A stretch of 64,000 nt of DNA from Candidatus Taylorbacteria bacterium RIFCSPHIGHO2_01_FULL_51_15 (GTDB lineage: Bacteria; Patescibacteriota; Minisyncoccia; Phycocordibacterales; UBA10002): NCBI GenBank assembly GCA_001820935.1, contig MHRI01000030.1, positions 2,734 through 66,733 of the forward strand, read 5' to 3'. Shown in pieces: positions 6,720 through 58,103 of this stretch. Under the pieces are notes generated by a model. That model made no database searches. It was not told where the DNA came from and worked only from the letters and a program-made list of their open reading frames with translations. Both the position numbers and the translations under genes were made by a program. Each line of letters opens with the position of its first letter. Within the stretch, counting starts at the first letter, position 1.

Positions 6720-7034
6720 ATGGCAGCACGACTGGATCGTTTGGAACGTTTGTTTACACAATCCGACACAGACGCCGAGGCCAACAATTACTTAACGTGG
6801 GACCATCTGCGTGAGGCGGTGAAAAAACCGAGCCGCGAGCAAATTTTAGCTCTGCCGCTACACGAACGGACGAATGTGCCCATCGCCTTCGTTGAGGCGG
6901 CGAAGATTGACTATGTCCCCGGGCCACCTGGCTTGCCCCAATTTGTCGGCTCTGCGGACGAGGTCGCGCAGTATCGAGCAGGTTTGGCTGACCTCAGTGT
7001 GGGCACGGGGAATCGTAGCCGATGGAGGTCCTAA
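6720..7034 (+). CDS. Hypothetical protein
   Basis: 104-aa ORF ending 30 nt before a strong terminator. No homology recognised. Confidence 0.4.
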   Translation: MAARLDRLERLFTQSDTDAEANNYLTWDHLREAVKKPSREQILALPLHERTNVPIAFVEAAKIDYVPGPPGLPQFVGSADEVAQYRAGLADLSVGTGNRSRWRS

Positions 7035-7062
7035 TCTCGCCATTCTCTCGTCGGTATTTTCG

Positions 7063-7098
7063 GGTGCGGCTAAGAATTGGCCGCACCTTTTCATTTTT
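7063..7098 (+). terminator. Rho-independent terminator
   Basis: 'GGTGCGGC-taagaattg-GCCGCACC' followed by 'TTTTCATTTTT'. Confidence 0.65.
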
Positions 7099-7128
7099 CT
7101 GCCCACAAAAGGTATACTATTGGAGTAT

Positions 7129-13055: not shown

Positions 13056-13171
13056 TAGACACAACTTGTCTCAAATCTATTCATATGAACAGATTTGAGA
13101 CATGACATGGTCAGTATGATGGTCCGTATGGCTGCTAACAGACCGATACTTTTCTCTGTTATCATAGGACT

Positions 13172-32402: not shown

Positions 32403-34235
32403 ATGATCCCTTTTGAGTCACTGCGAAAGCGCGTATTCATGGGGTGCAGGAAACACCAGGTCGCTCTTTACGGCGCCCTTCTTGTAGGCGCGATCTACAT
32501 CGCCCCGCACCTTTTCTTCATGGCCTCCCTTGGCGAGGCGTATCGCGGGATTCCGATGATGCGTACTTCCAATGAAGATTTTTATCTCGCGCGTGTTCAA
32601 GAAATACTGGATGGACACCCCGGAGTCGGCTCTCCGGCATTTTGGGAATATAAAGAGGGGCCGCCGCTTTCACCTCCGGTGGGGGAGTTTCTGTACGCGC
32701 TTCCCAGTCTCATCTTTGGTATTTCACCGACCAGCACACTTCTTTCGAGCAGGTTTTTTCTACCCGCGCTTCTCTTCTTTCTTGTCTACCTGTTGGTACG
32801 GAGATTGAATGAAGATGAAGATACCTTTGCGAGCACCCTAAGTGCCATTGCGGGTGGACTACTCGTAACCCTTGGCTACGATCTTGTTGACTACCGAGCG
32901 GTTTGGAGTTTTTTAAATCAAACAGCTTCCCCAGTCCATTTCCTTGTTTGGTCGAGGCCGATCAATCCCGTGCTTGGGGCTATACTACTTTTTTCTTTTT
33001 TCCTTTCGCTCACATCGCTTGTGCAAGGAAGTCCTTACCGGAAATGGACAATAGCTAGTGCTTCCGCATGTTTCGCCCTTATGATAGGAAGCTACTTTTT
33101 CAGCTGGGGCATCGCCCTTTCGGTTATCACTTTTCTCGCGCTCACCTACCTGTTTCTTCGGAAATACCGCATTGTCGGCGATCTCTCGCTCATTGTTCTT
33201 TTTACCGCGATTCTTTCTTCCCCGTATTGGTACGCAACATGGCGAGCGGCACAGAGCCCCTGGTACGAAGCATCGGTGTTCCGAAACGGTCTCTTTTACA
33301 CCCACTACCCGTTGCTTAACAAGTTCCTCCTTGCCGCGCTCCTCGTCTTTCTGCTCCTCGCGCTCCTTGAGTTTTTACAAAAACGACGCATCGGTATGCC
33401 ATGGGGTATCAAAACATGGCATACCTTTTCTCTCGCTTTTCTCCTCGGGGGCTTGTGGGTTTACAGTCAACAGATGGTTACCGGGCGCACCGTGTGGCCC
33501 TATCATTTTGTACAGTACACCATCCCTCTCTCTATGGTGGTTATCACGGTAAGCCTTTTTCACACGCGGAAATTTCTTTTCTACGGATGGCATACTTTCG
33601 TTTCCGCGGCTCTGCTGGGGTCACTTTTATTCGCGATCTTGCTACAGGGGAGTGTGTATGAGCAGTCTCTTTCGTACTACACTAGGCTCCAATCAAAAGC
33701 TTCACTTTTCGATTTTTTGAATAGAAGAGAAAGAGATTGCGTCGTGCTCGTCGCGGACCGGGCCGCGGAGAGCTACACCCTTCATGGTCTCATTCCCGCT
33801 TTCACACATTGCAACACCTATAATTCAAACTGGGGGTATTCACTGATGCCCGACGAGCGAATACAACATAATTATCTTGTATATCTCCTTATGCGGGGTG
33901 TTACCGCGGAGGGAGTGGAAGCATATGTTCACAATAATGAAGGAGACGCGCGCGGCTACCTTTTTTCCAACTGGAAGGGGCTTTACGGCATCAGAGATTT
34001 TCCGGATTTTTCAGATACCGTAACGGAAGAACGGCTCGCAAAAATTCCAGAAATCTACCGGGCGTTTCTCGAAAAGGACATCACACAGGAACTTAGAAAG
34101 TACCGCCTCGACTATCTTCTATTTGAAGGTAAGCCGACTGCAGAACTGCTCCAGAGGTTAGACATCTCTTCCTCCGCTCCTATTTTCGAAGAGGGGGGAG
34201 TCTTTGTGTATGCGTTTTCTCGTTCATCCCCCTAA
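32403..34235 (+). CDS. Large polytopic membrane protein (possible glycan polymerase or transferase, GT-C-like)
   Basis: About 12 TM helices then a ~180-aa C-terminal soluble domain. No motif recognised. Confidence 0.45.
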   Translation: MIPFESLRKRVFMGCRKHQVALYGALLVGAIYIAPHLFFMASLGEAYRGIPMMRTSNEDFYLARVQEILDGHPGVGSPAFWEYKEGPPLSPPVGEFLYALPSLIFGISPTSTLLSSRFFLPALLFFLVYLLVRRLNEDEDTFASTLSAIAGGLLVTLGYDLVDYRAVWSFLNQTASPVHFLVWSRPINPVLGAILLFSFFLSLTSLVQGSPYRKWTIASASACFALMIGSYFFSWGIALSVITFLALTYLFLRKYRIVGDLSLIVLFTAILSSPYWYATWRAAQSPWYEASVFRNGLFYTHYPLLNKFLLAALLVFLLLALLEFLQKRRIGMPWGIKTWHTFSLAFLLGGLWVYSQQMVTGRTVWPYHFVQYTIPLSMVVITVSLFHTRKFLFYGWHTFVSAALLGSLLFAILLQGSVYEQSLSYYTRLQSKASLFDFLNRRERDCVVLVADRAAESYTLHGLIPAFTHCNTYNSNWGYSLMPDERIQHNYLVYLLMRGVTAEGVEAYVHNNEGDARGYLFSNWKGLYGIRDFPDFSDTVTEERLAKIPEIYRAFLEKDITQELRKYRLDYLLFEGKPTAELLQRLDISSSAPIFEEGGVFVYAFSRSSP

Positions 34236-34373: not shown

Positions 34374-36020
34374 TTGAACCAGAAGCGTTTTTTGATTTTT
34401 ACATTCGGGCGGGCTATAGTTATCCACGCTTCCATGGAACAAGAGAGCCCTCAAGCCGTACCTACCTTTGCGCGAAAGTTCGACAAACTGGCCTTATTTC
34501 ATCCAGTGTTCTTGGCCGTGTATCTTATGCTGTTTCTCTTTTCATACAACAAGGAGCAGTTGCAGTTTGGAAACATTATCCTACCTCTCCTTCTCACCCT
34601 ACTCTTTGTAGGTGGGGTATATCTTGTCACCTTCGCTTTTATCAAGCATAAGCAGACATCGGCGCTTATCGCATCTCTTAGTCTCATTTTCTTTTTCGCC
34701 TATGGCACGGCGTACGCCCCGATCGAGTACCTTAAAATCGGAGATGTCATCGTCGGACGGTTTCGGTACTTCTTTCCCGCGTGGTCGCTCCTCTTCCTTC
34801 TTATCGCGTACGGGATTGTGAGGATGCGCAGCTATACCAAGATCGCAACAAAGTTCATCGCCGTCGTTGGACTGACCCTCTTACTTTTCCCCGTGATTGA
34901 TATTGCCGCCTTCACTTTGCGAAACAACGATGAGGTCTCTCACACTTTCACAGGCCTCAAATCGGGCGAGGAAACTATCGCAGAAAGTCCTGACATTTAT
35001 TACCTCATTCTTGATCAGTACGCTCATGCAGAAACGCTTAAAGCGGCAGGCTTCGACAATACGTCTTTCATAAACGCACTTGAAGACAGAGGCTTTATGG
35101 TCAGGAAGAGAAGTGCGACCAATTATCCACTCACCAGCACTTCGCTCACCTCGTCACTCAACATGAGATACATAGAGGGGGAAAGGGAACTCGAAGACGC
35201 GGGAAGACAAGCATTTCGTGCCATACGCGATAACGCCGCTCAACGGTTCCTAAAGAACCGTGGGTATACCACCATTCACTTCGATACAGGAGTAAGCATT
35301 ACCGAGTATAATGAGTTTGCGGACGTCAACATCTCCTGCGGACGAGTGAGCGAACTTTGGGCGCTCATTATACGGATGACGCCGCTCAAGATCCTGGATC
35401 GCCGCTATCGGATTGTTGACGGTGATCATCGAGGAAGAATCCTCTGTCAGTTTGAGCGACTTGCCGAGGTTCCTTTCATGGAAGGAGAGATTCCCAAATT
35501 TGTTTTTGCGCATATCGTTTCTCCGCATGCACCCTTTGTGTTCGGCCCAAACGGCGAAAATGTAGATACATCTTTTCTCGGTGTTGACGTTGAACAACCA
35601 GGCGGAGAGAAGCTGTATCTTGAACAACTTCAGTATCTTAATACACTTGTTCTCGACACGGTGACCAAGATACAGGAACGCTCGAAGCGTCCGCCCGTTA
35701 TCATTATCCATTCAGACCACGGGTCAAGCTCGCGCCCGAGGGAGGTGTGGGATAATCCAACAGACGAGTTTTTGAACGAGAGAATGCGAAACTTCATGGC
35801 GCTCTACGCTCCCACCGTAGATCGAGAGATTTTCGCGAAAAAGGTAACGACTCCAGTGAACATCTTCCGCTTCATCTTCAATGAGTATTTCGACGCCAAC
35901 TTTCCGTTACTTGAGGAACGTAGCTACTTCGCGTCGATCAAGAAACCTTTCATTTTTACCGATGTCACCGATCGTTTAGAGTTCGCCTCCCCTGACGTGT
36001 TTCCGCCTTCGAAGCGGTAG
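34374..36020 (+). CDS. Membrane-anchored sulfatase/alkaline-phosphatase-superfamily protein (LTA-synthase or phosphoglycerol/phospho-substituent transferase-like)
   Basis: 5 N-terminal TM helices, then 'YYLILDQYAH' and 'HIVSPHAPFVFGP' sulfatase-fold motifs. Confidence 0.55.
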   Translation: MNQKRFLIFTFGRAIVIHASMEQESPQAVPTFARKFDKLALFHPVFLAVYLMLFLFSYNKEQLQFGNIILPLLLTLLFVGGVYLVTFAFIKHKQTSALIASLSLIFFFAYGTAYAPIEYLKIGDVIVGRFRYFFPAWSLLFLLIAYGIVRMRSYTKIATKFIAVVGLTLLLFPVIDIAAFTLRNNDEVSHTFTGLKSGEETIAESPDIYYLILDQYAHAETLKAAGFDNTSFINALEDRGFMVRKRSATNYPLTSTSLTSSLNMRYIEGERELEDAGRQAFRAIRDNAAQRFLKNRGYTTIHFDTGVSITEYNEFADVNISCGRVSELWALIIRMTPLKILDRRYRIVDGDHRGRILCQFERLAEVPFMEGEIPKFVFAHIVSPHAPFVFGPNGENVDTSFLGVDVEQPGGEKLYLEQLQYLNTLVLDTVTKIQERSKRPPVIIIHSDHGSSSRPREVWDNPTDEFLNERMRNFMALYAPTVDREIFAKKVTTPVNIFRFIFNEYFDANFPLLEERSYFASIKKPFIFTDVTDRLEFASPDVFPPSKR

Positions 36021-36026
36021 GGACTT

Positions 36027-36353
36027 TTGAGTTTTCGAGTGCGACATTATCAATTAATCAGCATATATATGAGACACACCACACATCGGCGGCAGCATAT
36101 TCTCGGCATGGTCGGCTTACTCGCCGTGCTTTCACTTATTGTACCGCGATCGGCGAGCGCCTATCTTGATCCCGGAACGGGGAGCTTCATCATTCAGGTC
36201 CTTCTTGCCGCAGTTGCGGGTGTGGGCTACTTGGTTAAGGTGTTTTGGAATGGTATCAAGAACTTTTTCTCCTCGCTTTTCTCGAGTAAGCGAAAGACGC
36301 CGCCTGAGGGTATGAGCACTAACCATGACCAAGATCAAAAAGGAACTTCGTGA
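36027..36353 (+). CDS. Hypothetical small membrane protein
   Basis: 108 aa. Signal-like segment then TM 'FIIQVLLAAVAGVGYLV'. Confidence 0.3.
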   Translation: MSFRVRHYQLISIYMRHTTHRRQHILGMVGLLAVLSLIVPRSASAYLDPGTGSFIIQVLLAAVAGVGYLVKVFWNGIKNFFSSLFSSKRKTPPEGMSTNHDQDQKGTS

Positions 36354-37458
36354 TTGTTTTCGATTCTTTTTCCGGACGACTGCAGAAGAAAAACGAATCG
36401 TCTTTTACTCCGAATACCGAAGCTATTATTCGTATTTTGAAGGTGCAATACGGGAGCTCTTAGAGACGCATAAAGCTCCTCTCTGCTATGTCACTTCTGA
36501 CTTTTCGGATCCGATCTTGCAAAGCCCTCTCCCCATTCGGACATTCTACGTACATCGGTTGCTCCCTCTGTTCATGTTATTTCTTGACGCGCGTGTGTGC
36601 GTTATGACGCTCACCGATCTCAATAAATTTCACCTCCGCCGCTCGATGCGGAACGTACACTACGTCTACATCTTCCATTCACTCATCAGCACGCACATGC
36701 AGTATCGGGAAGGAGCCTTCGACCATTACGATACGATTCTCTGTGCCGGCCCGCACCATATGAGGGAAATCCGCCAACGGGAGGAGATGATAAATTTGCC
36801 GAAGAAGAATCTTGTACCGGCCGGCTACTACCGCGTGGAGCGCGTAAAAGAGGCCTTCCTATCGGCGCCTTTAAAACTCTCATCAGAACCGAAAGTCGTT
36901 CTGGTAGCGCCTTCGTGGGGGAAGCAGAACATTCTTGAAGTCTGCGGAGCTTCGCTCGTGCGGCTACTAATTGCTGCGGGACATCATGTCACCGTGCGTC
37001 CTCACCCCGAAACGATGCGACGCTCTCCGGAACTTATCGCCAATCTTGAAGACGAATTCGGTAGGATGAAAGGATTCATACTCGAAAAATCAGTGGCGGG
37101 CTTTTCTTCACTCGTTGCGGCAGATGTTCTTATCACCGACTGGTCGGGAGTGGCGTTCGAATACGCCTTCGGGACCGAACGTCCGGTCCTGTTCCTGGAT
37201 GTTCCAAAAAAGGTTAATAACCCCTCATTCGAGACGTTGCACCTCCAGCCTCTAGAGGTGGTGGCGCGCGAGAAGATCGGCATTGTCATCTCTCCTACGC
37301 GCCTCGAAGAAGTAATCCCGGCTATCACCAAGCTCGTGGAGAAGCGAGAAGAGTACCACACATGCATCAGGACTTTGCGCAGTGAGACGGTGTATGAGCT
37401 CGGCTCATCGTCTAGGGCAATGGGAGAAAGTATTATGAGTCTTGCCCGCTCTCTATGA
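36325..37458 (+). CDS. CDP-glycerol glycerophosphotransferase family protein (TagB/TagF-like)
   Basis: 'VVLVAPSWGKQN' and 'RPHPE' segments. 'LITDWSGVAFEYAFGTERPVLFLD' matches the TagB/F C-terminal catalytic region. Confidence 0.65.
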   Translation: MTKIKKELRDCFRFFFRTTAEEKRIVFYSEYRSYYSYFEGAIRELLETHKAPLCYVTSDFSDPILQSPLPIRTFYVHRLLPLFMLFLDARVCVMTLTDLNKFHLRRSMRNVHYVYIFHSLISTHMQYREGAFDHYDTILCAGPHHMREIRQREEMINLPKKNLVPAGYYRVERVKEAFLSAPLKLSSEPKVVLVAPSWGKQNILEVCGASLVRLLIAAGHHVTVRPHPETMRRSPELIANLEDEFGRMKGFILEKSVAGFSSLVAADVLITDWSGVAFEYAFGTERPVLFLDVPKKVNNPSFETLHLQPLEVVAREKIGIVISPTRLEEVIPAITKLVEKREEYHTCIRTLRSETVYELGSSSRAMGESIMSLARSL

Positions 37459-37907
37459 TTGCACCCACCCCTTCCTCGGCACTCGTCACCAAAGTTCTGC
37501 GTGAACTTCCTCCTTTCGAGACGGAGCAGGAGGGACAGATCTACACAGCCCTCATCGCAGAGAGACTTCTTCGTGCCTGGCCGCAGAACCTTTCCAAAGA
37601 TGACCTCGAATTTCTGAATATACTTTGCCGCAAGATCGAGGTCACGAAGAAACTTCTCTTGTCGTATGAGCTTCAGTGGAAACAGCCGAAGATACCGGTA
37701 GCACTGCCTCCTTCTTTTTTCCCTTTGATACTCTCTGTGCTCCTATTTCTTCCTGCTTTTCCCGGAGGAGACAAAGGACAGGCATTAAAACAGCTTAGCG
37801 CCGCATTCACGCTTATTGACCGCGCGGGAGATGGGGGAGGTGTGAGTGTACTAGACGAACTTCGCCGCTACGCGGAGGAGAGATTAACTCTGCTCACGAA
37901 AGACTGA
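37455..37907 (+). CDS. Hypothetical protein
   Basis: 150-aa ORF translationally coupled to flanking genes. Confidence 0.35.
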   Translation: MIAPTPSSALVTKVLRELPPFETEQEGQIYTALIAERLLRAWPQNLSKDDLEFLNILCRKIEVTKKLLLSYELQWKQPKIPVALPPSFFPLILSVLLFLPAFPGGDKGQALKQLSAAFTLIDRAGDGGGVSVLDELRRYAEERLTLLTKD

Positions 37908-37908
37908 T

Positions 37909-38796
37909 ATGCACACCCTACCCCTCACCGTGCTTGTTCATGAAGGACCCAATGCTCGCGCGTATCTCATGCGACTAAGGCGCCTTGGCCTGCGACCCTC
38001 TGCTATCGTGCTCTTGGTATCAAGGGAGTACCCCGGCACCAAGAAAGAAATTCCCGGTTGGCTTCCGTCGTCTCTCAAAATGAGTTACGCACAGCGCGTA
38101 CAGGAATCGGCAGAGCATTATTGGCCGCGGCATATCAGGAAAGCCTTTCCCGCACTTTTCGAAGCGATGCGCATTCCGCTTGAAGCGGCGTATGGAGAAA
38201 TCGATTGGGACGAAATGCTTCCCTCACAACCTTACGAATCGTATGCCGACAGCGTCGAGAGAGTCTTCATTCGAGATTTTCGCGACCCCGCCTTGTACCA
38301 GGCACTCCTACGCCTCAAGTATAAAACACTCCTCTTTACCGGTGGGGGGCTTGTTCCCGCCGCACTCCTTTCCATACCCGGTATCCGTTTTCTTCACGTA
38401 CATCCAGGCACACTCCCATTCGTGAGGGGCGCTGATGGTCTTCTTTGGTCCATACTTACCCGCGGTTTCCCCGGGGCAAGTTGCTTTTATATGCAGCCTG
38501 GACTTGATATGGGCGATGTTATCGAAACGAAAGATCTTCCGAATATCGTTTTTCCTCTTCGGGGGATAAAGCGCCCTCCTGATCCAACCCTCTACAGGGC
38601 CCTCTTTTCCTACTACGATCCGCTGTTGCGCGCGGACTTCTTAGCGGCTATACTGGCGAAGTCTAAGGACATGGATCTAGCCAATCTGTCAAGTTCGGTA
38701 CAAGAGTTGTCGGTGGGCATCACGTATCATTTTATGCACGAAAAGCTTCGACATCGCGCGCTCCAAAAATTATTTCCTTCATACACCTCGGTTTAA
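37909..38796 (+). CDS. Formyltransferase-like protein (Formyl_trans_N fold)
   Basis: 'FLHVHPGTLPFVRGADGLLWSIL' resembles the formyltransferase 'HPSLLPRYRG...W.I' core. Confidence 0.4.
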   Translation: MHTLPLTVLVHEGPNARAYLMRLRRLGLRPSAIVLLVSREYPGTKKEIPGWLPSSLKMSYAQRVQESAEHYWPRHIRKAFPALFEAMRIPLEAAYGEIDWDEMLPSQPYESYADSVERVFIRDFRDPALYQALLRLKYKTLLFTGGGLVPAALLSIPGIRFLHVHPGTLPFVRGADGLLWSILTRGFPGASCFYMQPGLDMGDVIETKDLPNIVFPLRGIKRPPDPTLYRALFSYYDPLLRADFLAAILAKSKDMDLANLSSSVQELSVGITYHFMHEKLRHRALQKLFPSYTSV

Positions 38797-38813: not shown

Positions 38814-39605
38814 ATGATGCATGACTATCGCCCATATTATAATACCTATTCCATGTGTGCGCCGATGGTGTTCGCGAAGGATGCTCTTTTCTCACGCGGT
38901 TCGACAAAACGGATTTCACTCATCAACCGTCTTCGTGATTATGTCGGGCTTCGAGATGCTCCCACTTTATTCTCCCTTCATCGAAAGATGAGTGAGCGTT
39001 TGTTCTTTGACCGCACTTGGCAAAGTCATGACTATGGAGAGGGTTATTTCTATCAGAGCTTTGATCGGATCGGCGTAAGGGGCCTCCGAGATACGAAGGC
39101 TCGCGTCGAAGCCATGGGTCTTCGGGATCTTCTGCGCGGAAAACATGTTATCGATATCGGTTCCAACGCGGGGTTTCTCTCACTTTCTCTCGCGGATGTT
39201 GCAAAAGAAGTTGTCGGCTTGGAGAATAACCCTGACCTTGTCGCTGTGGGTAATCTCGCTCGTGACTATTTGAGAGTACATAATGTCACTTTCGTCACTT
39301 CTTCTTTCGAGGACTTCACTACTTCGAAGGTTGCCGACGTCATACTTTCCTTCGCGAACCATTCCACGTATGATGGAAATACAAAGCAATCGGTCGAGGA
39401 ATATTTCGAGAAATGTAAGCGCCTCCTTCATCCCGGAGGTCTCCTCATTTTCGAATCCCACCACCCGACCTACGAATCTCCTGAAGCGCTTCAGCATGTC
39501 GTTTTGGTGATTGAGCGCCTCTTTCATATTCGCGAACGAAAGGTGCTTATGGCAGGGACATTTTTCGATCGGGGACGAACGTATATCGTGGCAGAACGTA
39601 GCTAA
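38814..39605 (+). CDS. SAM-dependent methyltransferase-like protein
   Basis: 'HVIDIGSNAGFLSLSLA' motif I. 'LLHPGGLLIFESH' segment. Confidence 0.5.
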   Translation: MMHDYRPYYNTYSMCAPMVFAKDALFSRGSTKRISLINRLRDYVGLRDAPTLFSLHRKMSERLFFDRTWQSHDYGEGYFYQSFDRIGVRGLRDTKARVEAMGLRDLLRGKHVIDIGSNAGFLSLSLADVAKEVVGLENNPDLVAVGNLARDYLRVHNVTFVTSSFEDFTTSKVADVILSFANHSTYDGNTKQSVEEYFEKCKRLLHPGGLLIFESHHPTYESPEALQHVVLVIERLFHIRERKVLMAGTFFDRGRTYIVAERS

Positions 39606-39659: not shown

Positions 39660-42566
39660 ATGGTCTCAGAAAAGAAAATTAGGAAAGTAGTCTATACTCC
39701 AGTTGTCGGGGATCTTTTCAATTTCGGACATCTCCAGTTCTTGCGTTACGTACGCCTTCTCGGGGATCACCTCATCTGCGGCGTGATGACCGACGACGCG
39801 GTGGCGTCCTTTAGGCAGAGGCCTATTGCGAACCTCGATGAACGAAAAGCTATATTTGAAAATCTCGCCTTTGTTGACCAGGTAATGGTTCAAGATAGCA
39901 AGGACCCGGAAGGGAACCTACGGAGTATCCGGGGAAAATGGAAGGATGCCGAGATCACACTCGTCTATGGTAGCAACTGGAAAACACTCCCGAGAGGAGA
40001 GTTCCTAAAATCGATCAAGGCACGGGTCGTGCACCATCCGCATTTTTATAACAAGTTCGCAGACTCCGAAATCGTCCGGCACCTTCTTACGAGCTACCGG
40101 CAAGAGTTTCAAAACCCGAGCGAATTTTTCCAGTATTTCAAACTTCACGACTTCATGCCGGACACGCAAAGCAAGGCCGAGCAATTTTCGCTCGGCACAA
40201 AAGGAGATACACTCCAAGCAATTCGCCCGCTTCTCACAAAATCGGTCATTGAGGACCTGCTCATCTTTACGGAGGAGGAGTGGAAGAGACATTCTTCCGT
40301 GATTGGCAAGAACATTCGGGACACGTTTTCTCCCGACACCATCGTTGTGCGAAGTTCCGCGCAGCGTGAAGACACCTCCACCTCATCTATGGCAGGGGTT
40401 TTCCAGAGCGTCCTTGGCGTCGATTCCAAGAGTCAGTCTGATGTGGCCGCGGCTGTGATGAGCGTCATCCGTTCATATCATGCGGAAAGAGAGACAATCT
40501 CCAATAATCAAATACTTGTGCAGAGGCAGACGAAGGACATCAAGATAAGTGGAGTCATCTTCACGCGGGTCATGGAAACTAACGCACCCTACTACGTCAT
40601 CGACTATGACGACACGACCGGGATGAGCGATCGCGTGACCAAAGGACAGGGACACGCCTCCATGAAGATGTATCGCTTCACCGATCCAAAATTGTATCCA
40701 AAGGAGTTTCGACCGCTGCTCGCGGCAGTGAAAGAGATAGAAGAACTGATTCCAAAGATAAGCTTGGATATCGAATTCGCCATAACCAAGAAAGGAAAGG
40801 TAGTTATCTTTCAAGTGCGTCCGCTTTCGGTGAACGCGGGCCATAACTACCTCGACAATATCCGAACTAAGAAGATAATCGAACGATTTAAGGAGGAATT
40901 TGCTTCGCTCCAAAGGGCGAAAAGTCATCTTGCAGGCAACACAACCTATCTCGCTGATATGCCCGACTGGAATCCAGCCGAGATTATCGGGGATCGCCCA
41001 AATCATCTCGATCAATCTTTGTACGCGTACATTATCACGAATCATGCGTGGCACAGGGCACGGACCTCCCAAGGATACGCTAACGTGGATCCGGCACAGC
41101 TTGTGGTGATGTTTGGCGGTAAGCCATACGTAGATGTGCGAAGCTCTTTCAATTCGTTCGTTCCGGCCGATCTTCCCCAAAAGCTTAGGGAAAAGCTCGT
41201 TCTGTTTTACCTTCACAAGTTGAAGACCCACCCTGAACTTCAGGACAAAGTCGAATTCGATATTGTCTTTACCTGTTTTGATCTCACTTTTTCCCAGCGT
41301 TCAAAAGAGCTTCGGAAACACGGATTCAGTGAGAAAGAAATACAGACCTTCAAGATCTCTCTCCTTTCCCTGACAAACAAACTTTTGGAGAACTACACCG
41401 AGGAAGTGAAAAAAGATCTTGCGGCGGCGGTGGCCCTCCGTCCCAAGCGATCCGTAATCGGGCAACTCGCCAAGGAGAAGGCGCACGATCCCCGAGAGCT
41501 CCTCTCTTTGGCGAGAGAACTTCTCGATCATGCCGTGAGCTCCGGTACGATCCAATTTTCTCGCCTCGCGCGCCTCGCTTTTATCGGCAAAATCCTGCTT
41601 CGGAGTTTGGTGTCACGAAAAATCATTGATACTGCAATCTATCATGAGTTTCTTTCGTCCATCTCGACCGTCGCGACGAAAATGGATGAGGATTTCCTTG
41701 CGTACACGCGAGGAGAGCTCCACCCCCGCGAATTTCTCGCGCGATACGGGCATCTCCGTCCCGGGACGTACGATATCACGAGTCTTCGCTACGATGCCGA
41801 CCCGGCACTTCTTGTCGCTACGGCACCTCCATCAACGGGGCACCCGAAAAAAGAATCCTTTGTGCTTCCCGGAAAAACGGCTCAAAAGATCACCGCCGTG
41901 TTTAGAAAAGAAGGATTAGCATTTGATGCGTCGTATTTTTTTGAATTTCTCAAAACCGCGATAGAAGCTCGCGAATTTTCTAAGTTTGAATTTACCAAAA
42001 ACCTGAGCGATGCAATCGAATGTATCGCAAAAGCCGGAGCACTCCTCGGATTCTCAAGGGAAGAGATGTCTTCCCTTGATACGGAGAACCTCTTTGACCT
42101 ACTTGAAGTGGAGGATGTAAGGGACATGCAAAGAGCGTGGAAAGATCTCATCCGTTACCGCATGGAGGAAAAGGAAGAGCACAAAAAGGTGCTTCTCCCG
42201 CCAATTATATATTCTCCGCAAGATCTTGAGATCATTGCTCCGTACGTCGCAAAGCCTAACTTTATTACCGAGAAGAAGGTAGAGGGGAAAATCGTGAATC
42301 TACGTATGACAAATAAGAGCACACTCGCTATCAAGGGAAATATTGTGCTGCTCGAGAACGGGGATCCGGGATACGATTGGATTTTTACAAGAAAGCCTCT
42401 CGGTCTTATCACGAAGTATGGCGGTGTGGCTTCTCATATGGCGATACGATGCGCCGAATTCGGCCTTCCTGCCGCTATCGGCTGCGGAGAAGTTATCTTT
42501 TCGGAGTTAGCACAAGCGAAAGGCGCCCTGCTTGATTGTGGGAAGAAGAAAATCATAGTACGTTAG
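39660..42566 (+). CDS. Fusion protein: N-terminal TagD-like cytidylyltransferase domain (~140 aa) joined to a PEP-utilising-enzyme/pyruvate-phosphate-dikinase-family phosphotransferase (ATP-grasp region plus phosphohistidine swivel domain). Candidate L-glutamine-kinase (Cj1418)-like enzyme.
   Basis: N-terminal 'VVYTPVVGDLFNFGHLQFL' HxGH cytidylyltransferase motif aligns with B. subtilis TagD. C-terminal 'VLLENGDPGYDWIFTRKPLGLITKYGGVASHMAIRCAEFGLPAAIGCGE' is the PEP-utilising mobile domain with the catalytic-His context. Central 'QREDTSTSSMAGVFQSV' resembles the PPDK N-terminal nucleotide-binding region. Confidence 0.7.
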   Translation: MVSEKKIRKVVYTPVVGDLFNFGHLQFLRYVRLLGDHLICGVMTDDAVASFRQRPIANLDERKAIFENLAFVDQVMVQDSKDPEGNLRSIRGKWKDAEITLVYGSNWKTLPRGEFLKSIKARVVHHPHFYNKFADSEIVRHLLTSYRQEFQNPSEFFQYFKLHDFMPDTQSKAEQFSLGTKGDTLQAIRPLLTKSVIEDLLIFTEEEWKRHSSVIGKNIRDTFSPDTIVVRSSAQREDTSTSSMAGVFQSVLGVDSKSQSDVAAAVMSVIRSYHAERETISNNQILVQRQTKDIKISGVIFTRVMETNAPYYVIDYDDTTGMSDRVTKGQGHASMKMYRFTDPKLYPKEFRPLLAAVKEIEELIPKISLDIEFAITKKGKVVIFQVRPLSVNAGHNYLDNIRTKKIIERFKEEFASLQRAKSHLAGNTTYLADMPDWNPAEIIGDRPNHLDQSLYAYIITNHAWHRARTSQGYANVDPAQLVVMFGGKPYVDVRSSFNSFVPADLPQKLREKLVLFYLHKLKTHPELQDKVEFDIVFTCFDLTFSQRSKELRKHGFSEKEIQTFKISLLSLTNKLLENYTEEVKKDLAAAVALRPKRSVIGQLAKEKAHDPRELLSLARELLDHAVSSGTIQFSRLARLAFIGKILLRSLVSRKIIDTAIYHEFLSSISTVATKMDEDFLAYTRGELHPREFLARYGHLRPGTYDITSLRYDADPALLVATAPPSTGHPKKESFVLPGKTAQKITAVFRKEGLAFDASYFFEFLKTAIEAREFSKFEFTKNLSDAIECIAKAGALLGFSREEMSSLDTENLFDLLEVEDVRDMQRAWKDLIRYRMEEKEEHKKVLLPPIIYSPQDLEIIAPYVAKPNFITEKKVEGKIVNLRMTNKSTLAIKGNIVLLENGDPGYDWIFTRKPLGLITKYGGVASHMAIRCAEFGLPAAIGCGEVIFSELAQAKGALLDCGKKKIIVR

Positions 42567-42570
42567 AGAC

Positions 42571-43260
42571 ATGCAGATTCTCATTTCACAACGCGTGGTA
42601 AGGCGGGAAGGACGAGGAGATATGGACGCGCTCGAGACGAACTATGTGGAGTTCTTCCGAGGATTTGGGGTGAAGGTTTTGCCGGTCTCAAATACACTCC
42701 GCGACATTGAAGGCTACGTGTCGGGGTTGTCCGTAGACGGGGTGATTCTTTCTGGCGGCAACGACGTGAATCCAAGGTTATATGGAGAAACAGCTACTCC
42801 CGACAGCGATTATTCCGAGGCTAGGGATACTACGGAGCGTTTACTTCTTGAGTTTGCCATAAAAGGAAAATTACCGGTACTCGGTATCTGCAGGGGCACG
42901 CAGTTTATCAACGTCTTTTTCGGAGGGAAGCTCGTGCAGGATATCTCCAACGCAACCGGGGGAGATCATCTTCATCCGCATGAGGCAGAGATATCCGACG
43001 CAGAGGCGCGCGCGTACCTCGGCAAAAGCAGTATGCAGGTCAATTCGTATCACCGGCAGGGCATCACGCCCGGGGAGCTTTCGCTGAACCTTCGCCCGTT
43101 TGCCATCGGGAAGGACGGAAGCATCGAGGGGATATATCACGCTACTCGCCCGATCGCGGGCCTCATGTGGCATCCGGAACGGCAGGGCTCTGACAAGGAA
43201 ACGGATGCGAAGCTCATTGCCGCCTTTGCAAAAGGAGAATTATTTTGGAAAAAGGCATGA
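42571..43260 (+). CDS. Class I glutamine amidotransferase-like / peptidase C26 hydrolase. Candidate gamma-glutamyl-CDP-amidate hydrolase (Cj1417)-like enzyme.
   Basis: 'LPVLGICRGTQFINVFFGG' nucleophile-elbow Cys motif. 'GLMWHPE' His motif. Confidence 0.7.
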   Translation: MQILISQRVVRREGRGDMDALETNYVEFFRGFGVKVLPVSNTLRDIEGYVSGLSVDGVILSGGNDVNPRLYGETATPDSDYSEARDTTERLLLEFAIKGKLPVLGICRGTQFINVFFGGKLVQDISNATGGDHLHPHEAEISDAEARAYLGKSSMQVNSYHRQGITPGELSLNLRPFAIGKDGSIEGIYHATRPIAGLMWHPERQGSDKETDAKLIAAFAKGELFWKKA

Positions 43261-44003
43261 AAGCAATCATTTTAGCGGCAGGCCGCGGTACGAGGCTTAG
43301 CAAATACACCAAAGACCTGCCAAAGTGCATGCTTGAGTTTGGAGGAAAGACGCTTATTCTGCGCCAGGTGGAAACGCTTCGAAAGGCCGGTATTTCCGAC
43401 ATCACTTTGATTAAGGGGTATCTTGCCGAGAAGATACAAATTCCGGGCGTGAAGTACTTGGTGAACGAACGCTATGCCGAGACGAACATGGTCGGCACGC
43501 TTATGTGCGCTAAAGAGGAGCTGGGGGGAGATACTCTTATTTGTTACGGGGACATCATCTACGAAGAAAAAGTACTCCGCGCGGTGCTTGCGGACAAAAG
43601 CGACATCGGGGTCGTTGTGGATGAAGATTGGCGGCCGTATTGGGAGGCGCGTCACGGAGATTCGTTGATCGATACCGAGAGTCTTGTCGTAGGGAAAGGG
43701 GGGAATATCATTGAGCTCGGAAAAGCCGATCCGCCTCCGGAAAAAGCGAAGTTGCGTTATGTCGGTCTCATCAAGCTTTCGAGAAAGGGAGTGGAACAGT
43801 TGAAGCGGGTCTATGAGGGGAATCCCGTGCTCTTCGATACATCCTACATGACCGATCTCTTGCGGGCGATAATTGACGCAGGATTTCGCGTAGATCCTAT
43901 TGTGGTGCGGCACGGCTGGCTTGAGTTCGACACGAGCGAGGATTATGAAAAGATGACCGTGCTTCTTGAAAGTAACAAGCTCGCCCCGCTTTTTAGGATA
44001 TAA
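43245..44003 (+). CDS. LicC-like NTP-transferase (sugar/phospho-substituent cytidylyltransferase). Candidate Cj1416-like enzyme.
   Basis: 'MKAIILAAGRGTRLSKYTKDLPKCMLEFGGKTLI...ITLIKGYLAEKI' matches the LicC/MobA-like nucleotidyltransferase signature. Confidence 0.7.
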   Translation: MEKGMKAIILAAGRGTRLSKYTKDLPKCMLEFGGKTLILRQVETLRKAGISDITLIKGYLAEKIQIPGVKYLVNERYAETNMVGTLMCAKEELGGDTLICYGDIIYEEKVLRAVLADKSDIGVVVDEDWRPYWEARHGDSLIDTESLVVGKGGNIIELGKADPPPEKAKLRYVGLIKLSRKGVEQLKRVYEGNPVLFDTSYMTDLLRAIIDAGFRVDPIVVRHGWLEFDTSEDYEKMTVLLESNKLAPLFRI

Positions 44004-49502: not shown

Positions 49503-50288
49503 TTGGTTATTCATTTTATGAAGAACATCCGCATTATCCCAACCCTCCATATCAAAGGATCGAACGTGGTAAAGCCGGTACACACCGAAGCCCTTCGTGT
49601 TGTGGGCCATCCAAAGGAGCTTGCCCTCCGTTACTACCGCGAGGGAGCTGATGAACTTATCTATCTCGATATTGTCGCGAGCCTGTACCAGCGCAATTTT
49701 GATTTTGAGTTACTCAAATCCGTTTCCGAAGAAATCTTCATCCCGATTACGGTTGGAGGAGGCATCCGCTCGCTCTCCGATATCAAAAATGCTCTGCGTG
49801 TCGGAGCCGACAAAGTCGCCATCAATACGTATGCCGTGCATCACCCCGAGTTCTTGAAAGCCGCCGCAGAAGAGTTCGGCTCGCAGTGTATCGTGCTCTA
49901 CATTGAGGCCAAGGAAAAAGGGGACGGGAGGTGGGAGGTCTATACAGATGGCGGGCGGGAGAGCACCGGTGTTGATGCCGTGGAATGGGCGAAAAGGACA
50001 ATAGACCTTGGTGTAGGCGAAATCCTCCTCACTTCCATTGATCGCGATGGAACACGGAAGGGATATGACCTCGAGCTTACCTCTGCCATCGCTTCAACGT
50101 CTCCCATTCCCGTCATAGCCCATGGAGGCGCGGGGAATGCCGCTCACCTGGAAGAGATTATCAAGAAGGGAAAGGCGGACGCCGTGGGAGTGTCATCCAT
50201 TTTTCACTACGCGGAGACGGATATTGGAGCCGTGAAGAAAAATTTGAGTGGACGGGAAATCAATGTGAGAGCAAATTATTCTAATTAG
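49503..50288 (+). CDS. hisF: Imidazole-glycerol-phosphate synthase cyclase subunit HisF homolog (glycan-locus paralog, WbuZ-like)
   Basis: '[15 protein letters not shown]' and 'DELIYLDI' segments. '[10 protein letters not shown]' and '[11 protein letters not shown]' are HisF signatures. Confidence 0.8.
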
Positions 50289-50400
50289 TCTAATTGCCCT
50301 AATTATTCTAAGGAATATCAAAAAACCAATTTCCAAGTTAAACATTCGCAGTTAGGATTTCATTAGGTCAATTAGAATAATTAGGGTACTTAGGTCAATT
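50289..50400. mobile_element. MITE-like 112-bp element with terminal inverted repeats (no cargo)
   Basis: Left 'TCTAATTGCCCTAATTATTCTAAGGA'. Right 'GTCAATTAGAATAATTAGGGTAC', which is the reverse complement of CCCTAATTATTCTAATTGAC. Fills the hisF-hisH spacer. Confidence 0.6.
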
Positions 50401-50410
50401 TTTCATTCTT

Positions 50411-51058
50411 ATGAAATCTATCGTTATCATCGATTATGGAGTTGGTAACCTGCAAAGCTTGCGGAAGGCTTTCGCCCACTTCGGCGTTGAAGCGGTTGTG
50501 TCCGAAGACGCAAAGGAAATTGAGGTGGCAGATGCAGTGGTACTCCCCGGAGTGGGCTCATTCGAAGCGGGCATGCGAGGGCTGCGCCTTCGTGGACTCG
50601 TGGAGACCGTGCAGAAGCGCGCAAAAGAAAACCAACCTATGCTGGGCATCTGCCTTGGGGCACAGCTCCTGCTTTCCAAGGGTTATGAGTTCGGCGAGCA
50701 CGATGGGCTTAACATCATCCCGGGTGAAGTGGTTCGATTCGATGAGCGAGAGATGAAGGAGAAAATACCGCAGGTCGGATGGAACAGGGTGTATCCGAGC
50801 GGAGATGTTTCTTGGAAAGGAAGTATCCTCGAATCGAATGGGCCTAAGTCTGTTATGTATTTTACCCATTCATACATCTTTGCGCCGAAGCAAAAAGAGC
50901 ATATGTTTGGCGTAACTGTGTATGGCGGCAAGGAATTTTGCTCGGTCATTCGGAAAGGTAACATCTATGGCTGTCAATTCCATCCGGAAAAAAGCGGAGA
51001 AGCCGGACTTCGGCTTATCAGGAACTTCATTTCACTCGCATCAGCACCTCGTGCATAG
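50411..51058 (+). CDS. hisH: Glutamine amidotransferase subunit HisH homolog (WbuY-like)
   Basis: 'IVIIDYGVGNLQSL' and 'VVLPGVGSF' segments. 'MLGICLGAQLL' Cys nucleophile. 'GCQFHPEKS' His motif. Confidence 0.8.
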   Translation: MKSIVIIDYGVGNLQSLRKAFAHFGVEAVVSEDAKEIEVADAVVLPGVGSFEAGMRGLRLRGLVETVQKRAKENQPMLGICLGAQLLLSKGYEFGEHDGLNIIPGEVVRFDEREMKEKIPQVGWNRVYPSGDVSWKGSILESNGPKSVMYFTHSYIFAPKQKEHMFGVTVYGGKEFCSVIRKGNIYGCQFHPEKSGEAGLRLIRNFISLASAPRA

Positions 51059-57050: not shown

Positions 57051-58103
57051 ATGAAATATCCCTACATCCAAATAGGCAACCGCAGGATAGGAAGAAACTA
57101 TCCGCCGTTTGTCGTTCCCGAAGTCGGCATCAATCACGAGGGCAGTTTGGCGAAAGCAAAACGCATGGTAAAAGATGCGAAGAAGGCCGGGGCCGAGTGC
57201 GTCAAGTTCCAATGCCACGTGATTGAGGATGAAATGACTCCCGCGGCAAAGACAGTCATTCCGGGGAATGCAAAAGAATCAATCTGGGACATCATGGAGC
57301 GGTGCGCTCTGTCGGAATCGCAGGACAGGGAACTCAAAAAGTATGTTGAGGATTTAGGCATGATGTACCTCTCCACCCCATTCTCACGCGCCGCGGCAAA
57401 CAGACTTGAACGGCTCGGCGTTCTCGCGTACAAAATCGGCTCCGGCGAGTGCAACAACTACCCACTCGTACGACATATCGCTTCATTCGGAAAACCGGTG
57501 ATTCTTTCTACGGGTATGAATGACATCGCCTCGATCAAGGAGAGTGTCGCTATTCTTCGGAAGAAGAAAATTCCATACGCGCTTCTCCACTGTACCTCTA
57601 TGTATCCGACGCCCTATGAGAAGGTGCGTCTTGGCGCTCTGCAGGAACTTTCGAGAATATTTCCCGACGCGGTAATAGGGCTCTCTGATCATTCAATGGG
57701 GAACTATACCTGCTTTGCCGCAACGGCGCTTGGCGGCTCGATACTTGAGAAACATTTCACCTCCGACAAACGCTGGCCCGGTCCCGATGTCCCGATATCC
57801 ATTGATCCGTCCGGACTTGCCGATCTCATCGAAGGATCAACCGCTATTTATTCGGCCCTTGGCGGAGAGAAGACAGTCCTAAAGGAAGAACAGCCGACAA
57901 TCAACTTCGCATATGCTACAGTGGTGGCGATACAGGATATACCGAAAGGGGAAAGACTTACTTTAGAAAATATCTGGGTAAAGCGTCCAGGCACCGGAAA
58001 AATCCAAGCCGCAAGGTTCGATGAACTTCTCGGATCGGTGGCGACAAGGCATATACGCATACACGAAGCGATTTCATGGGAAAAAATACAAAAAAGAAAG
58101 TAG
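57051..58103 (+). CDS. neuB: N-acetylneuraminate / legionaminate-type nonulosonic acid synthase (NeuB family)
   Basis: 'PFVVPEVGINHEGSLAKAKRMV', 'KIGSGECNNYPL' and 'GLSDHS' are NeuB TIM-barrel signatures. C-terminal SAF/AFP-like domain. Confidence 0.85.
   Translation: MKYPYIQIGNRRIGRNYPPFVVPEVGINHEGSLAKAKRMVKDAKKAGAECVKFQCHVIEDEMTPAAKTVIPGNAKESIWDIMERCALSESQDRELKKYVEDLGMMYLSTPFSRAAANRLERLGVLAYKIGSGECNNYPLVRHIASFGKPVILSTGMNDIASIKESVAILRKKKIPYALLHCTSMYPTPYEKVRLGALQELSRIFPDAVIGLSDHSMGNYTCFAATALGGSILEKHFTSDKRWPGPDVPISIDPSGLADLIEGSTAIYSALGGEKTVLKEEQPTINFAYATVVAIQDIPKGERLTLENIWVKRPGTGKIQAARFDELLGSVATRHIRIHEAISWEKIQKRK

Follow-up and report, generated by a model that had tools for sequence, protein, structure and literature searches.

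O-Methyl phosphoramidate (MeOPN) is usually described as a rarity found only in Campylobacter capsules. In Campylobacter jejuni, the genes Cj1418-Cj1417-Cj1416-Cj1415 stand in line, and Cj1418 encodes an L-glutamine kinase (EC 2.7.3.13). The 64,000-nucleotide stretch of DNA analysed here, in the following called the window, holds a gene whose product shares with Cj1418 the end-to-end match to the model NF004508 and the ATP-grasp plus His-swivel architecture. The same order of a class-I glutamine amidotransferase (GATase) gene and a LicC-type nucleotidyltransferase gene follows downstream, and the gene set of the locus fits the logic of the Campylobacter MeOPN precursor pathway. Compared with Cj1418, however, the protein carries about 175 extra N-terminal residues, a cytidylyltransferase-fold domain plus linker. 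The locus also departs from the Campylobacter cluster in that the window has no Cj1415-type kinase, that the GATase scores under the equivalog cutoff and that the candidate transferases are others, namely a TagF-like and an alkaline-phosphatase (AP)-superfamily protein. The host is probably bacterial, and the closest relatives of the fusion protein come mostly from DPANN archaea.

The top structural match of the N-terminal domain is the CyTase of Fom1 from Streptomyces wedmorensis, which lies N-terminal to a PEP mutase. In Fom1, too, the first committed enzyme of an unusual phosphorus-bond pathway begins with a PF01467 domain; the partner of this domain, however, is a PEP mutase (P–C bond) and not a glutamine kinase (P–N bond), and the copy in the window has neither the first His nor the motif Ser. 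PEP mutase (Ppm) fusions have been described to PF12804 (33%) and to PF01467 (23.6%), and nucleotidyltransferases of both kinds are likewise found fused in the glutamine-kinase family. TagD of the GCT family has the same fold and belongs to the same Pfam family, with the HxGH motif and a RTEGISTT-like Ser aligning at the family level. In contrast to TagD, the domain is far under the equivalog cutoff, is fused to a kinase, has no consistent link to TagF-like genes and in this copy reads NFGH and Ala134. The 790-aa body has the swivel-His phosphotransfer logic in common with the RPH and PEP synthase superfamily, but with about 15% identity and a different substrate. As a whole, the sequence comparisons make it reasonably probable that the gene encodes a Cj1418-type glutamine kinase with an accessory cytidylyltransferase module, that it acts in a pathway of this kind, and that the module is impaired in this copy.

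The fusion gene

The gene and its parts are located as follows.
39660..42566, + strand: whole fusion gene, cytidylyltransferase-like domain plus predicted Cj1418-type glutamine kinase, 968 aa
39660..40094, + strand: GCT/Fom1-type cytidylyltransferase-fold domain, aa 1-145 (PF01467 and structure matches)
39720..39731, + strand: HxGH position, reading N21-F-G-H24, with AAT as codon 21 (from alignment to Fom1, ECT and TagD)
40059..40061, + strand: codon 134 (GCA, Ala) at the conserved Ser of the family (aligned to the Ser of Fom1 'YTPGIS')
40095..40184, + strand: linker, aa 146-175, flexible by prediction
40185..42566, + strand: predicted glutamine-kinase body with ATP-grasp, helical substrate domain and phosphohistidine swivel domain, aa 176-968 (NF004508/PRK05849 match)
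42435..42437, + strand: His926 codon within the GGVASHM motif (aa 921-927), invariant in 45 aligned homologs

The open reading frame starts with ATG and contains no internal stop. A preliminary description of this DNA had proposed a continuous fusion and had asked for a frameshift near 40050-40150 to be looked for. No frameshift was found there: more than 100 database proteins with 42-55% identity can be aligned over 99-100% of the length and show the same three Pfam domains (in the fusion protein CTP_transf_like at aa 18-133, PPDK_N at aa 208-279 and PEP-utilizers at aa 892-960). The independently assembled ENA contig L088 (4,591 bp) matches with 99.935% DNA identity and, despite three mismatches, encodes the identical protein. 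That two separate genes have been joined by a frameshift or misassembly is a negligible concern, for which we found no support; against it stand the contig L088, the same unbroken fusion in more than 150 distinct homologs from many phyla, and the conserved residues F156, K181, T184 and L185, which span the junction. The opposite artefact was seen once, where the seemingly unfused protein P0110 of locus L006 turned out to be a fused gene cut by an assembly gap.

In a genome survey of 82 non-duplicate loci, the kinase was fused in 59 and unfused in 23. Our literature search found no publication on a cytidylyltransferase–glutamine kinase fusion, in line with the preliminary statement that no such enzyme had been described. 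The architecture is rare in the literature, yet it is abundant in sequence databases under generic annotation and not as unusual as first thought. AF2 modelling of the full-length protein gives residues 165-177 a pLDDT below 50, and 10-residue blocks over positions 131-180 average 48-67. The N-terminal domain is thus, by this model, tethered to the kinase by a flexible linker.

The kinase body

An ATP-grasp and His-swivel phosphotransferase body had been recognised from the sequence beforehand, and the Pfam domains and the fold bear this out. The nearest solved fold of the 790-aa body is the three-domain rifampin phosphotransferase 5fbs (E 8e-21). The generic label of a PPDK or PEP-utilising enzyme, by contrast, does not hold. 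NCBIfam NF004508/PRK05849, which we take to represent the Cj1418-type L-glutamine kinase, matches aa 170-966 over model positions 3-786 of 789 with 853.7 bits against a cutoff of 501, whereas the PEP synthase and PPDK models reach 17-46 bits (cutoffs 456-1063) and the RPH and PEP synthase models 16-46 bits (cutoffs 598-1700). With these scores, and with no Pfam match to PEP-utilizers_C in the fusion protein, we reject an identity as PEP synthase or pyruvate phosphate dikinase. Several homologs carry the JGI name 'glutamine kinase', in agreement with our reading of NF004508. His926 of the GGVASHM motif presumably carries the phospho group in the swivel domain and would correspond to Cj1418 His737. 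Because of the end-to-end model match, the RPH-like fold, the invariant motif His and the JGI names, together with the pathway context, the body is with high probability a Cj1418-type L-glutamine kinase; this identity and the pathway context stand on firmer ground than our explanation as a whole.

The N-terminal domain

For the N-terminal domain, a TagD/GCT-class cytidylyltransferase fold had been proposed, and profile and structure searches agree. PF01467 (CTP_transf_like) matches with 29.5 bits (gathering cutoff 21, E 9.6e-7), and the family profile finds ECT (86 bits), the Fom1 CyTase (72 bits) and TagD (55 bits) in the PDB; Fom1, second after ECT in this search, was the first sequence match in another comparison. 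The AF2 model of the domain (pLDDT 87) has 5x3d, the Fom1 CyTase, as its top Foldseek match, with a TM of 0.80 normalised to the target and 30% identity. Further matches include TagD of the GCT family (TM normalised to target 0.85 for 2b7l and 0.73 for 1coz), HldC, CCT and ECT. The TagD equivalog TIGR01518, however, gives 32.7 bits against a cutoff of 165.4.

Across the family, the catalytic signature is well kept. Among 154 unique N-domains, the H, G, H and S positions are conserved at 97-100%, with H at the first HxGH position in 151, at the second His in 150 and S at the motif Ser in 151; R62 and D73 are conserved too. In both bacterial and archaeal members, HxGH, the motif Ser, R62 and the basic residues 52 and 54 are found at a frequency of at least 95%. 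In this copy, all sequence strings quoted in the preliminary description are present, but the HxGH that it implied reads NFGH on proper alignment, where Fom1 has HPGH, ECT HYGH and TagD HWGH. The first His is thus lost and the second kept, while the family keeps both. Asn at the first position occurs in three of the 154 domains, this one included. At the RTxGISTT-type motif, where the family consensus 'yYeklS' (YYxRLS) aligns with Fom1 'YTPGIS', the protein reads F129-Y-N-K-F-A134, and Ala at the Ser position is found in this copy only; the 'RVVHHPHF...' stretch falls on the part aligned to the same Fom1 motif. N21 and A134 are also present on contig L088. Degenerate catalytic motifs occur in about 5% of members, this copy included, and the ratio of N-domain to kinase score is the third lowest among 58. 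With its first HxGH His replaced by Asn and its motif Ser by Ala, the domain of this copy is, on balance, probably weakened or inactive, and the pathway would lean on the separate LicC-type enzyme. PPAT of the same superfamily naturally has TxGH, and activity may survive a change of the first His to Asn.

Gene neighbourhood

The locus is a surface-glycan island in which the kinase gene heads a conserved trio, completed by two genes downstream.
42571..43260, + strand: class-I glutamine amidotransferase/Peptidase_C26, Cj1417-like, presumed gamma-glutamyl-CDP-amidate hydrolase (PF07722, 131 bits)
43245..44003, + strand: LicC-type nucleotidyltransferase, Cj1416-like, presumed CTP:phosphoglutamine cytidylyltransferase (PF12804 and PF00483)

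The GATase contains the GICRG and HPE motifs with the catalytic Cys and His. Its top NCBIfam model, NF045546 (gamma-glutamyl-CDP-amidate hydrolase), gives 99.6 bits against a cutoff of 250, which we count against our explanation. The GATase gene adjoins the kinase gene in 80 of the 82 loci; some 20-30 bp usually separate the two. The LicC-type gene, which the preliminary description had already noted, shares 16 nt with the GATase gene; its product has LicC (1jyk) as top PDB match and a GRGTRL motif. Such a gene typically lies about 700 bp downstream (78/82 loci), with LicC ortholog-level matches (at least 285 bits) in almost all loci whose flank is long enough, and the order kinase, amidotransferase, LicC-type enzyme is kept in 78/82. 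It is retained in 55/59 fused and in all 23 unfused loci; L013 is the sole fully flanked fused locus without it, a single case. Since the LicC-type enzyme is retained with or without the fused domain, the latter must be regarded as an extra, and a direct coupling of phosphorylation and cytidylylation in one polypeptide, as had been suggested, is not established. Fusions between other steps were seen as well, such as GATase with LicC in L007 and APS-kinase, CTase and kinase in P0083, providing Rosetta-stone links.

Upstream of the kinase gene, the following genes are found.
38814..39605, + strand: SAM-dependent methyltransferase, directly upstream (Methyltransf_31/11/25; syntenic in L001 and L088)
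37455..38796, + strand: two conserved genes, a 150-aa ORF and a 295-aa weakly formyltransferase-like ORF (syntenic with L001)
36325..37458, + strand: TagB/F-like CDP-X phosphotransferase (PF04464, 41 bits)
34374..36020, + strand: alkaline-phosphatase-superfamily ('sulfatase') protein (weak PF00884 match)

The methyltransferase is a candidate for phosphoramidate methylation. The 295-aa family, with a weak PF00551 match, occurs in 28/82 loci. The TagB/F-like gene, correctly placed next to the fusion in the preliminary description, belongs to a group found in 11/82 loci; its product is a candidate transferase for an activated phosphoramidate, in analogy to FtaD, a TagF-like enzyme with a non-glycerol CDP-X donor. 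The AP-superfamily protein is an alternative candidate; its family is present in 26/82 loci and in L007 is fused to an APS-kinase domain. A search of the whole 64-kb window for a Cj1415-type (APS-kinase family) kinase gave no convincing homolog (best tblastn E 0.009); such kinases occur in 17/82 surveyed loci.

Discussion

The conserved GATase and LicC-type genes behind the kinase suggest that the product of the cluster is most likely not CDP-glycerol but CDP-glutamine, from which cytidine diphosphoramidate would then be made. Of the two chemistries considered beforehand, the MeOPN or CDP-amidate one thus fits the locus. By inference from the Campylobacter enzymes, the ATP-grasp domain would charge the swivel His926 from ATP, and the LicC-type enzyme would join the kinase product, phosphoglutamine, with CTP to form CDP-L-glutamine. 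Hydrolysis of CDP-L-glutamine by the C26 amidotransferase would release cytidine diphosphoramidate and glutamate. The phosphoramidate could then be passed to a sugar by the TagF-like or the AP-superfamily protein and possibly be methylated by the adjacent methyltransferase.

Across the family, the N-domain is most likely an active CTP-dependent nucleotidyltransferase on an intermediate of the same pathway, judging from the catalytic signature that the family keeps. Our preferred, though tentative, reading is that it captures the product of its own kinase in cis and makes CDP-glutamine in parallel to the LicC-type enzyme. From gene content, the domain is in any case an accessory module, because the LicC-type enzyme is kept almost everywhere whereas the domain was repeatedly lost or gained. 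Unfused lineages nest among fused ones and have no standalone replacement gene. Moreover, in L086 and L087 it is a LicC-fold domain that occupies this position in the fusion, and a second dikinase architecture has the same CTase and the same partners.

Alternatively, the N-domain might carry out a distinct nucleotidyl-transfer step that is absent from the Campylobacter pathway, such that it and the LicC-type enzyme would not be redundant. It could join CTP and inorganic phosphoramidate to CDP-amidate, or act in the manner of Fom1 by transient cytidylylation of a later P–N intermediate, as a handle for the methyltransferase or the transferase. A mere duplicate of the LicC-type step would often be lost, and the presence of both nucleotidyltransferases in about 93% of the fused loci hence favours distinct roles, as does L087, which has a fused LicC paralog (141 bits) besides a LicC ortholog (295 bits). 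For the Fom1 CyTase, the closest structural relative, the substrate is an intermediate further along the pathway rather than what its fused partner makes, and the Fom1 loop 'ASYKRLP' resembles the substrate loop 'ASFRQRP' of the domain. The APS-kinase-then-CTase order in P0083 presumably mirrors that of PAPS synthase, and FtaC methylates a CDP-linked intermediate. Nevertheless, we regard a distinct step as rather unlikely, since the domain was repeatedly lost without a replacement gene in the locus and no gene in the surveyed loci consistently accompanies the fused form only; degenerate motifs next to intact clusters are also hard to square with an essential, unique step.

GCT-type enzymes are dimers, and the N-domain could also be non-catalytic, a CTP/CDP-binding regulatory or dimerisation module that couples the kinase to CTP supply or organises the enzyme. 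The occurrence of the complete trio without it, its repeated loss or gain and the motif changes in six other members would agree with this, and so would the well-folded unit that this copy keeps (163 bits against the family HMM) despite H21N and S134A. The signature residues conserved throughout the family, however, form the pattern of an active enzyme, some of which nucleotide binding alone could preserve, and this makes a purely structural or regulatory role fairly improbable. A TagD-like synthesis of CDP-glycerol or another CDP-alditol for the TagB/F-like transferase, proposed at the outset, is very improbable. The TagF-like gene does lie 2.2 kb upstream, also in the syntenic locus L001, and the best single match of the N-domain, the tandem CTase P0121, adjoins a TagF-like gene. 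Yet such genes are found in only 9/59 fused loci, and the TagF-like protein of L089 has no match to the TagF-like HMM from the window and L001 and no tblastn match to the window. Furthermore, the TIGR01518 score is far too low, all of the approximately 150 N-domains gathered from proteins of the kinase family are fused to this family and not to glycerol-phosphate genes, and a phosphoramidate transferase explains the neighbour equally well, as TagF-like enzymes accept other CDP-X donors. We hence retain the reading of an accessory nucleotidyltransferase on a pathway intermediate.

The fusion is common in uncultured archaea and bacteria, and the gene studied here is probably, on the comparisons above, a glutamine kinase in a glycan-decoration island with its extra domain impaired. 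The core trio for nucleoside diphosphoramidates is spread over DPANN and other archaea, Thaumarchaeota, Planctomycetes, Bacteroidetes, Firmicutes and spirochaetes, among others. Among the sampled loci, most copies of the first enzyme bear the extra cytidylyltransferase domain, on which we found no study, and which would make the protein either a channelled bifunctional enzyme or the site of a new step in P–N bond biochemistry. A design rule known from P–C pathways, that the first committed enzyme can be fused to a nucleotidyltransferase of either of two unrelated folds, is thereby extended. The cultured Halanaerobium polyolivorans Z-7514 (L047) possesses an intact fused enzyme. If the domain does perform a distinct step, the fused-type clusters of DPANN archaea and many bacterial phyla would produce a phosphoramidate decoration that differs in kind or in its assembly, and P–N glycan chemistry would be far commoner than a view limited to Campylobacter suggests.

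The fused open reading frame

The gene under study is a single open reading frame with an ATG start (39660-42566 (+), 968 aa), in which Pfam recognizes the following domains:

aa 18-133, CTP_transf_like (29.5 bits, gathering score 21)
aa 208-279, PPDK_N
aa 892-960, PEP-utilizers

The preliminary description had considered a frameshift near 40050-40150 joining two separate genes. Such an artifact is excluded by more than 100 database clusters of 42–55% identity that contain the same three domains and align over 99–100% of the length, by the fused form being encoded in 59 of 82 non-duplicate loci, and by an independently assembled ENA contig of 4.6 kb (L088), which over 4,590 bp shows 3 SNPs relative to the window and codes for exactly the same protein. 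The locus set came from a one-genome-per-species scan (80 loci), to which earlier contexts and the window were added and from which duplicates were removed. Within the species-representative genomes, the best relative shared 52% identity. Database counts of unfused kinases are inflated by assembly breaks: the seemingly unfused P0110 (L006:4693-7699; 757 aa) is a fused gene broken by a run of N, and the open reading frame upstream of it ends in XXXX.

A probable glutamine kinase carrying an extra module

Residues 170-966 matched the NCBIfam model NF004508 (PRK05849) end to end with 853.7 bits (cutoff 501), whereas the models for PEP synthase, PPDK and rifampin phosphotransferase gave 16–46 bits against cutoffs of 456–1700. 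We take PRK05849 to be the family of Cj1418, the L-glutamine kinase of Campylobacter jejuni, an equation supported by several homologs bearing the JGI name "glutamine kinase". Of the generic PEP-utilising dikinase described initially, the ATP-grasp and His-swivel elements stand, and the generic assignment gives way to a specific one. In the full-length AlphaFold model (pLDDT 87.5, pTM 0.77), the nearest solved fold was rifampin phosphotransferase (5fbs, E 8e-21), whose ATP-grasp, helical substrate domain and His-swivel most resemble the kinase body. The swivel His926 lies within GGVASHM, a motif invariant in 45 aligned homologs. The body is a Cj1418-type kinase to which the N-terminal domain is added as an extra module, and the protein calls for no new category.

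Gene order downstream of the kinase

Two genes follow the kinase:

42571-43260, Peptidase_C26/class-I amidotransferase (GATase), next gene after the kinase
43245-44003, LicC-type nucleotidyltransferase, TTG start, best PDB match LicC (1jyk)

Only 4 nt separate the kinase stop from the GATase start, and the 16 nt shared by the GATase end and the LicC-type gene (43245-43260) suggest translational coupling. The best NCBIfam match of the GATase was gamma-glutamyl-CDP-amidate hydrolase, the Cj1417 function; because its 99.6 bits fall below the cutoff of 250, this sequence resemblance is at family level only. It retains intact GICRG and HPE motifs.

When the 82 loci were searched with custom HMMs, the order of kinase, GATase (gap of ~25 bp) and LicC-type gene (~700 bp downstream) proved near-universal, and LicC-type matches reached at least 285 bits, i.e., ortholog level, in almost every locus with sufficient flank. 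An APS-kinase-like gene, where present, often follows directly after the LicC gene; no APS-kinase homolog was found in the window. This gene order is that of cj1418, cj1417, cj1416 and cj1415 in Campylobacter. As summarized in secondary citations, the four enzymes Cj1415–1418 convert glutamine, ATP and CTP into CDP-phosphoramidate 3'-phosphate, and the first step is the N-phosphorylation of glutamine.

Gene families near the kinase in 82 non-duplicate loci
Gene family; fused loci; unfused loci; Fisher test
GATase; 57/59; 23/23
LicC-type, ortholog level; 55/59; 23/23
APS-kinase-like; 10/59; 7/23; p = 0.23
Alkaline-phosphatase superfamily; 12/59; 14/23; p = 0.001

Rosetta-stone fusions link the pathway steps: GATase and LicC-type nucleotidyltransferase are joined in L007:3306-4718 (470 aa), and APS kinase, cytidylyltransferase and glutamine kinase in P0083 (L003:10001-13393, 1130 aa).

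Further variation was seen among the loci. In a Levyibacteriota (CPR) locus, L043:9962-14252, the place of the LicC-type gene after kinase and GATase is taken by an AAA_17/18 kinase-like gene plus a histidine phosphatase; this may represent a variant downstream pathway. Several fused loci adjoin genes for sulfate activation (CysD/CysN-like, ATP sulfurylase, APS kinase) and genes of the HIT family (L005:18055-20119; L091:9306-11555, 13104-13646; L092:4611-5750, 9708-10145, 14614-14997). Some of the matches counted as APS kinases may hence be true APS kinases and not Cj1415 equivalents. HIT proteins include nucleoside phosphoramidases.

Upstream neighbors and the glycan island

Upstream of the kinase we find:

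34374-36020, alkaline-phosphatase-superfamily ("sulfatase") protein
36325-37458, TagB/F-like phosphotransferase
37455-37907, conserved 150-aa ORF, no match in a Pfam search
37909-38796, conserved 295-aa ORF, weakly formyltransferase-like, its family present in 28/82 loci
38814-39605, SAM methyltransferase

The locus of the closest relative (L001) is syntenic with the window, and there too the 150-aa and 295-aa ORFs are flanked by the TagF-like gene on one side and by the methyltransferase on the other. The alkaline-phosphatase-superfamily gene recurs in 26/82 loci and is the only family that differs by fusion state, being more frequent in unfused loci, a difference confounded by phylogeny (Thaumarchaeota clade). 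Its fusion to APS kinase in L007:4715-6391 (558 aa) hints that it uses a 3'-phosphorylated donor, and we regard it as a candidate phosphoramidate transferase. The TagF-like protein is a second candidate, since enzymes of this type can accept other CDP-X donors, for which FtaD provides a precedent. The methyltransferase might act in the same phosphoramidate pathway.

Taken as a whole, the 64-kb window forms a surface-glycan island with GT4 and GT2 enzymes, sugar-nucleotide enzymes, a KpsS/C-like protein, NeuB with a 2-epimerase and an ABC exporter; a Mur ligase is also encoded, which points to a bacterial host. A HisF/HisH-like pair occurs with NeuB and UDP-GlcNAc 2-epimerase (49503-51058, 57051-59233), which points to a nonulosonic-acid branch within the island. 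For a 610-aa ORF in the glycan cluster (32403-34235), neither a Pfam match nor, using family HMMs, a homolog in the 87 other loci was found. Upstream of the island, a T4SS coupling-protein/HerA-like ATPase lies beside a PKD/lamin-tail-domain protein (6874-9072, 9091-10659); the pair may be a mobile-element remnant.

Fold and conservation of the N-terminal domain

A family profile of the N-terminal domain matched ECT (86 bits), the Fom1 CyTase (72 bits, nearly the whole domain aligned), TagD (55 bits) and CCT. An AlphaFold model of aa 1-175 (pLDDT 87.3) had the HEP-CMP-bound Fom1 CyTase as its top structural match (target-normalised TM 0.80, 30% identity); TagD (0.85) and HldC came next. The TagD-like N-terminus proposed earlier is thus confirmed as a cytidylyltransferase fold, but not as TagD proper, for which TIGR01518 gave 32.7 against a cutoff of 165.4.

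In the HxGH motif, the first His is kept in 151, the Gly in all and the second His in 150 of 154 unique N-terminal domains. A Ser aligned with that of Fom1 YTPGIS (equivalent to RTEGISTT) occurs in 151/154, R62 in 154/154 and D73 in 97%. Such conservation is what characterizes an active enzyme. At the junction with the kinase, residues 165-177 of the full-length model fall below pLDDT 50 and 10-residue blocks over 131-180 average 48–67, which suggests a flexible tether between the two parts.

An accessory domain with recurrent counterparts

The N-terminal domain is accessory to a complete pathway and was repeatedly lost or gained, as shown by a LicC ortholog that is kept with or without it and by unfused lineages that nest among fused ones. 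In an approximate neighbor-joining tree of the kinase domain only, the midpoint root has fused forms to either side, and the unfused lineages L007, L039-L041 and L043 lie within a fused DPANN-type clade. No unfused locus contained a standalone copy of the domain. Substitution for the LicC-type (Cj1416) enzyme is ruled out by the ortholog-level LicC counts in fused and unfused loci (table). Compensation for an absent Cj1415-type kinase, at which the first few contexts had hinted, also falls: P0110 is in truth fused, and APS-kinase frequencies do not differ between the two groups.

Fusion of a nucleotidyltransferase to this kinase is recurrent. In L086:9182-12421 (a Candidatus Abyssobacteria MAG) and L087:9482-12589 (an Aliifodinibius MAG), the kinase N-terminus bears a LicC-fold (NTP_transferase) domain instead of the TagD-fold domain, a convergent recruitment of two unrelated folds to one position; L087 has a separate LicC ortholog after the GATase (295 bits; fused domain 141 bits). 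A second, larger dikinase architecture (P0122, P0123, P0124, P0134; 1128–1208 aa) carries the closest N-terminal domains, of at most 52% identity, followed by a glutamine-kinase-like ATP-grasp, a divergent middle, the swivel and, C-terminally, a second strong PPDK_N. In L091:3306-6749, such a gene precedes LicC and C26 GATase genes that score at ortholog level; a PK+ATP-sulfurylase fusion and an APS kinase lie close by. The single best match to the window domain was P0121 (L089:854-3061), a standalone tandem of two cytidylyltransferase domains (315 aa) whose neighbors are a TagF-like gene and an SDR, a teichoic-acid-like context without the kinase.

Possible roles of the N-terminal domain

These fusions parallel those of PEP mutase with nucleotidyltransferases in phosphonate biosynthesis: 33% of PEP mutases carry a fused PF12804 domain, 23.6% a PF01467 domain and 2.9% both. 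Taking together its accessory position in a complete pathway, the recurrent kinase–nucleotidyltransferase partnership and the phosphonate parallel, we conclude that the domain at family level most likely works as an active nucleotidyltransferase that depends on CTP and belongs to the same P-N pathway. As to its substrate, we tentatively favor that it would capture glutamine phosphate in cis. The main rival, which we consider rather unlikely, is a distinct step such as phosphoramidate cytidylylation or a transient, Fom1-like cytidylylation; the Fom1 CyTase itself acts on a later intermediate rather than on what the mutase produces. That the domain is regulatory or structural seems more doubtful still. 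Synthesis of CDP-glycerol for the TagF-like neighbor, a candidate of the preliminary description, is highly improbable: TagF-like genes stand beside only 9/59 fused loci, and as FtaD illustrates, their products need not use this donor.

Altered motifs in this copy

The window domain reads N21-F-G-H24 (codon 21 AAT), and its motif Ser is replaced by Ala134 (GCA), each codon being one nucleotide away from the family residue. Both changes recur in L088, which rules out sequencing errors. In P0002, the nearest relative, HFGH and the Ser are retained. The domain scored 163 bits against the family HMM, and its score relative to that of the kinase domain was the third lowest of 58. It is no unique outlier: among the 154 unique domains, two others, both bacterial, likewise carry Asn instead of the first His, and in four the second His is substituted. 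Loss of both histidines would have spoken against the proposed enzyme; here the first is lost and the second kept.

When one of the two HxGH histidines is mutated in TagD or CCT, activity drops by orders of magnitude, yet PPAT of the same superfamily naturally has TxGH. Impairment of the window copy is hence probable rather than certain. The LicC gene is kept in all 4 evaluable degenerate-motif members (window, L057, L060, P0066), and in L013, which lacks LicC, the motif is intact; at a base rate of 94%, this is uninformative.

Significance

Our literature search found no paper describing this fusion; the nearest mention is a Borg preprint with a MeOPN-like cluster in which a PEP-mutase–nucleotidyltransferase fusion lies beside a glutamine kinase. 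Databases list many of the fused proteins, with generic names. With its probably impaired domain, the window copy itself is of less interest; the fusion is of specialist interest as widespread, conserved and unexplained. P-N glycan chemistry probably extends well beyond Campylobacter.
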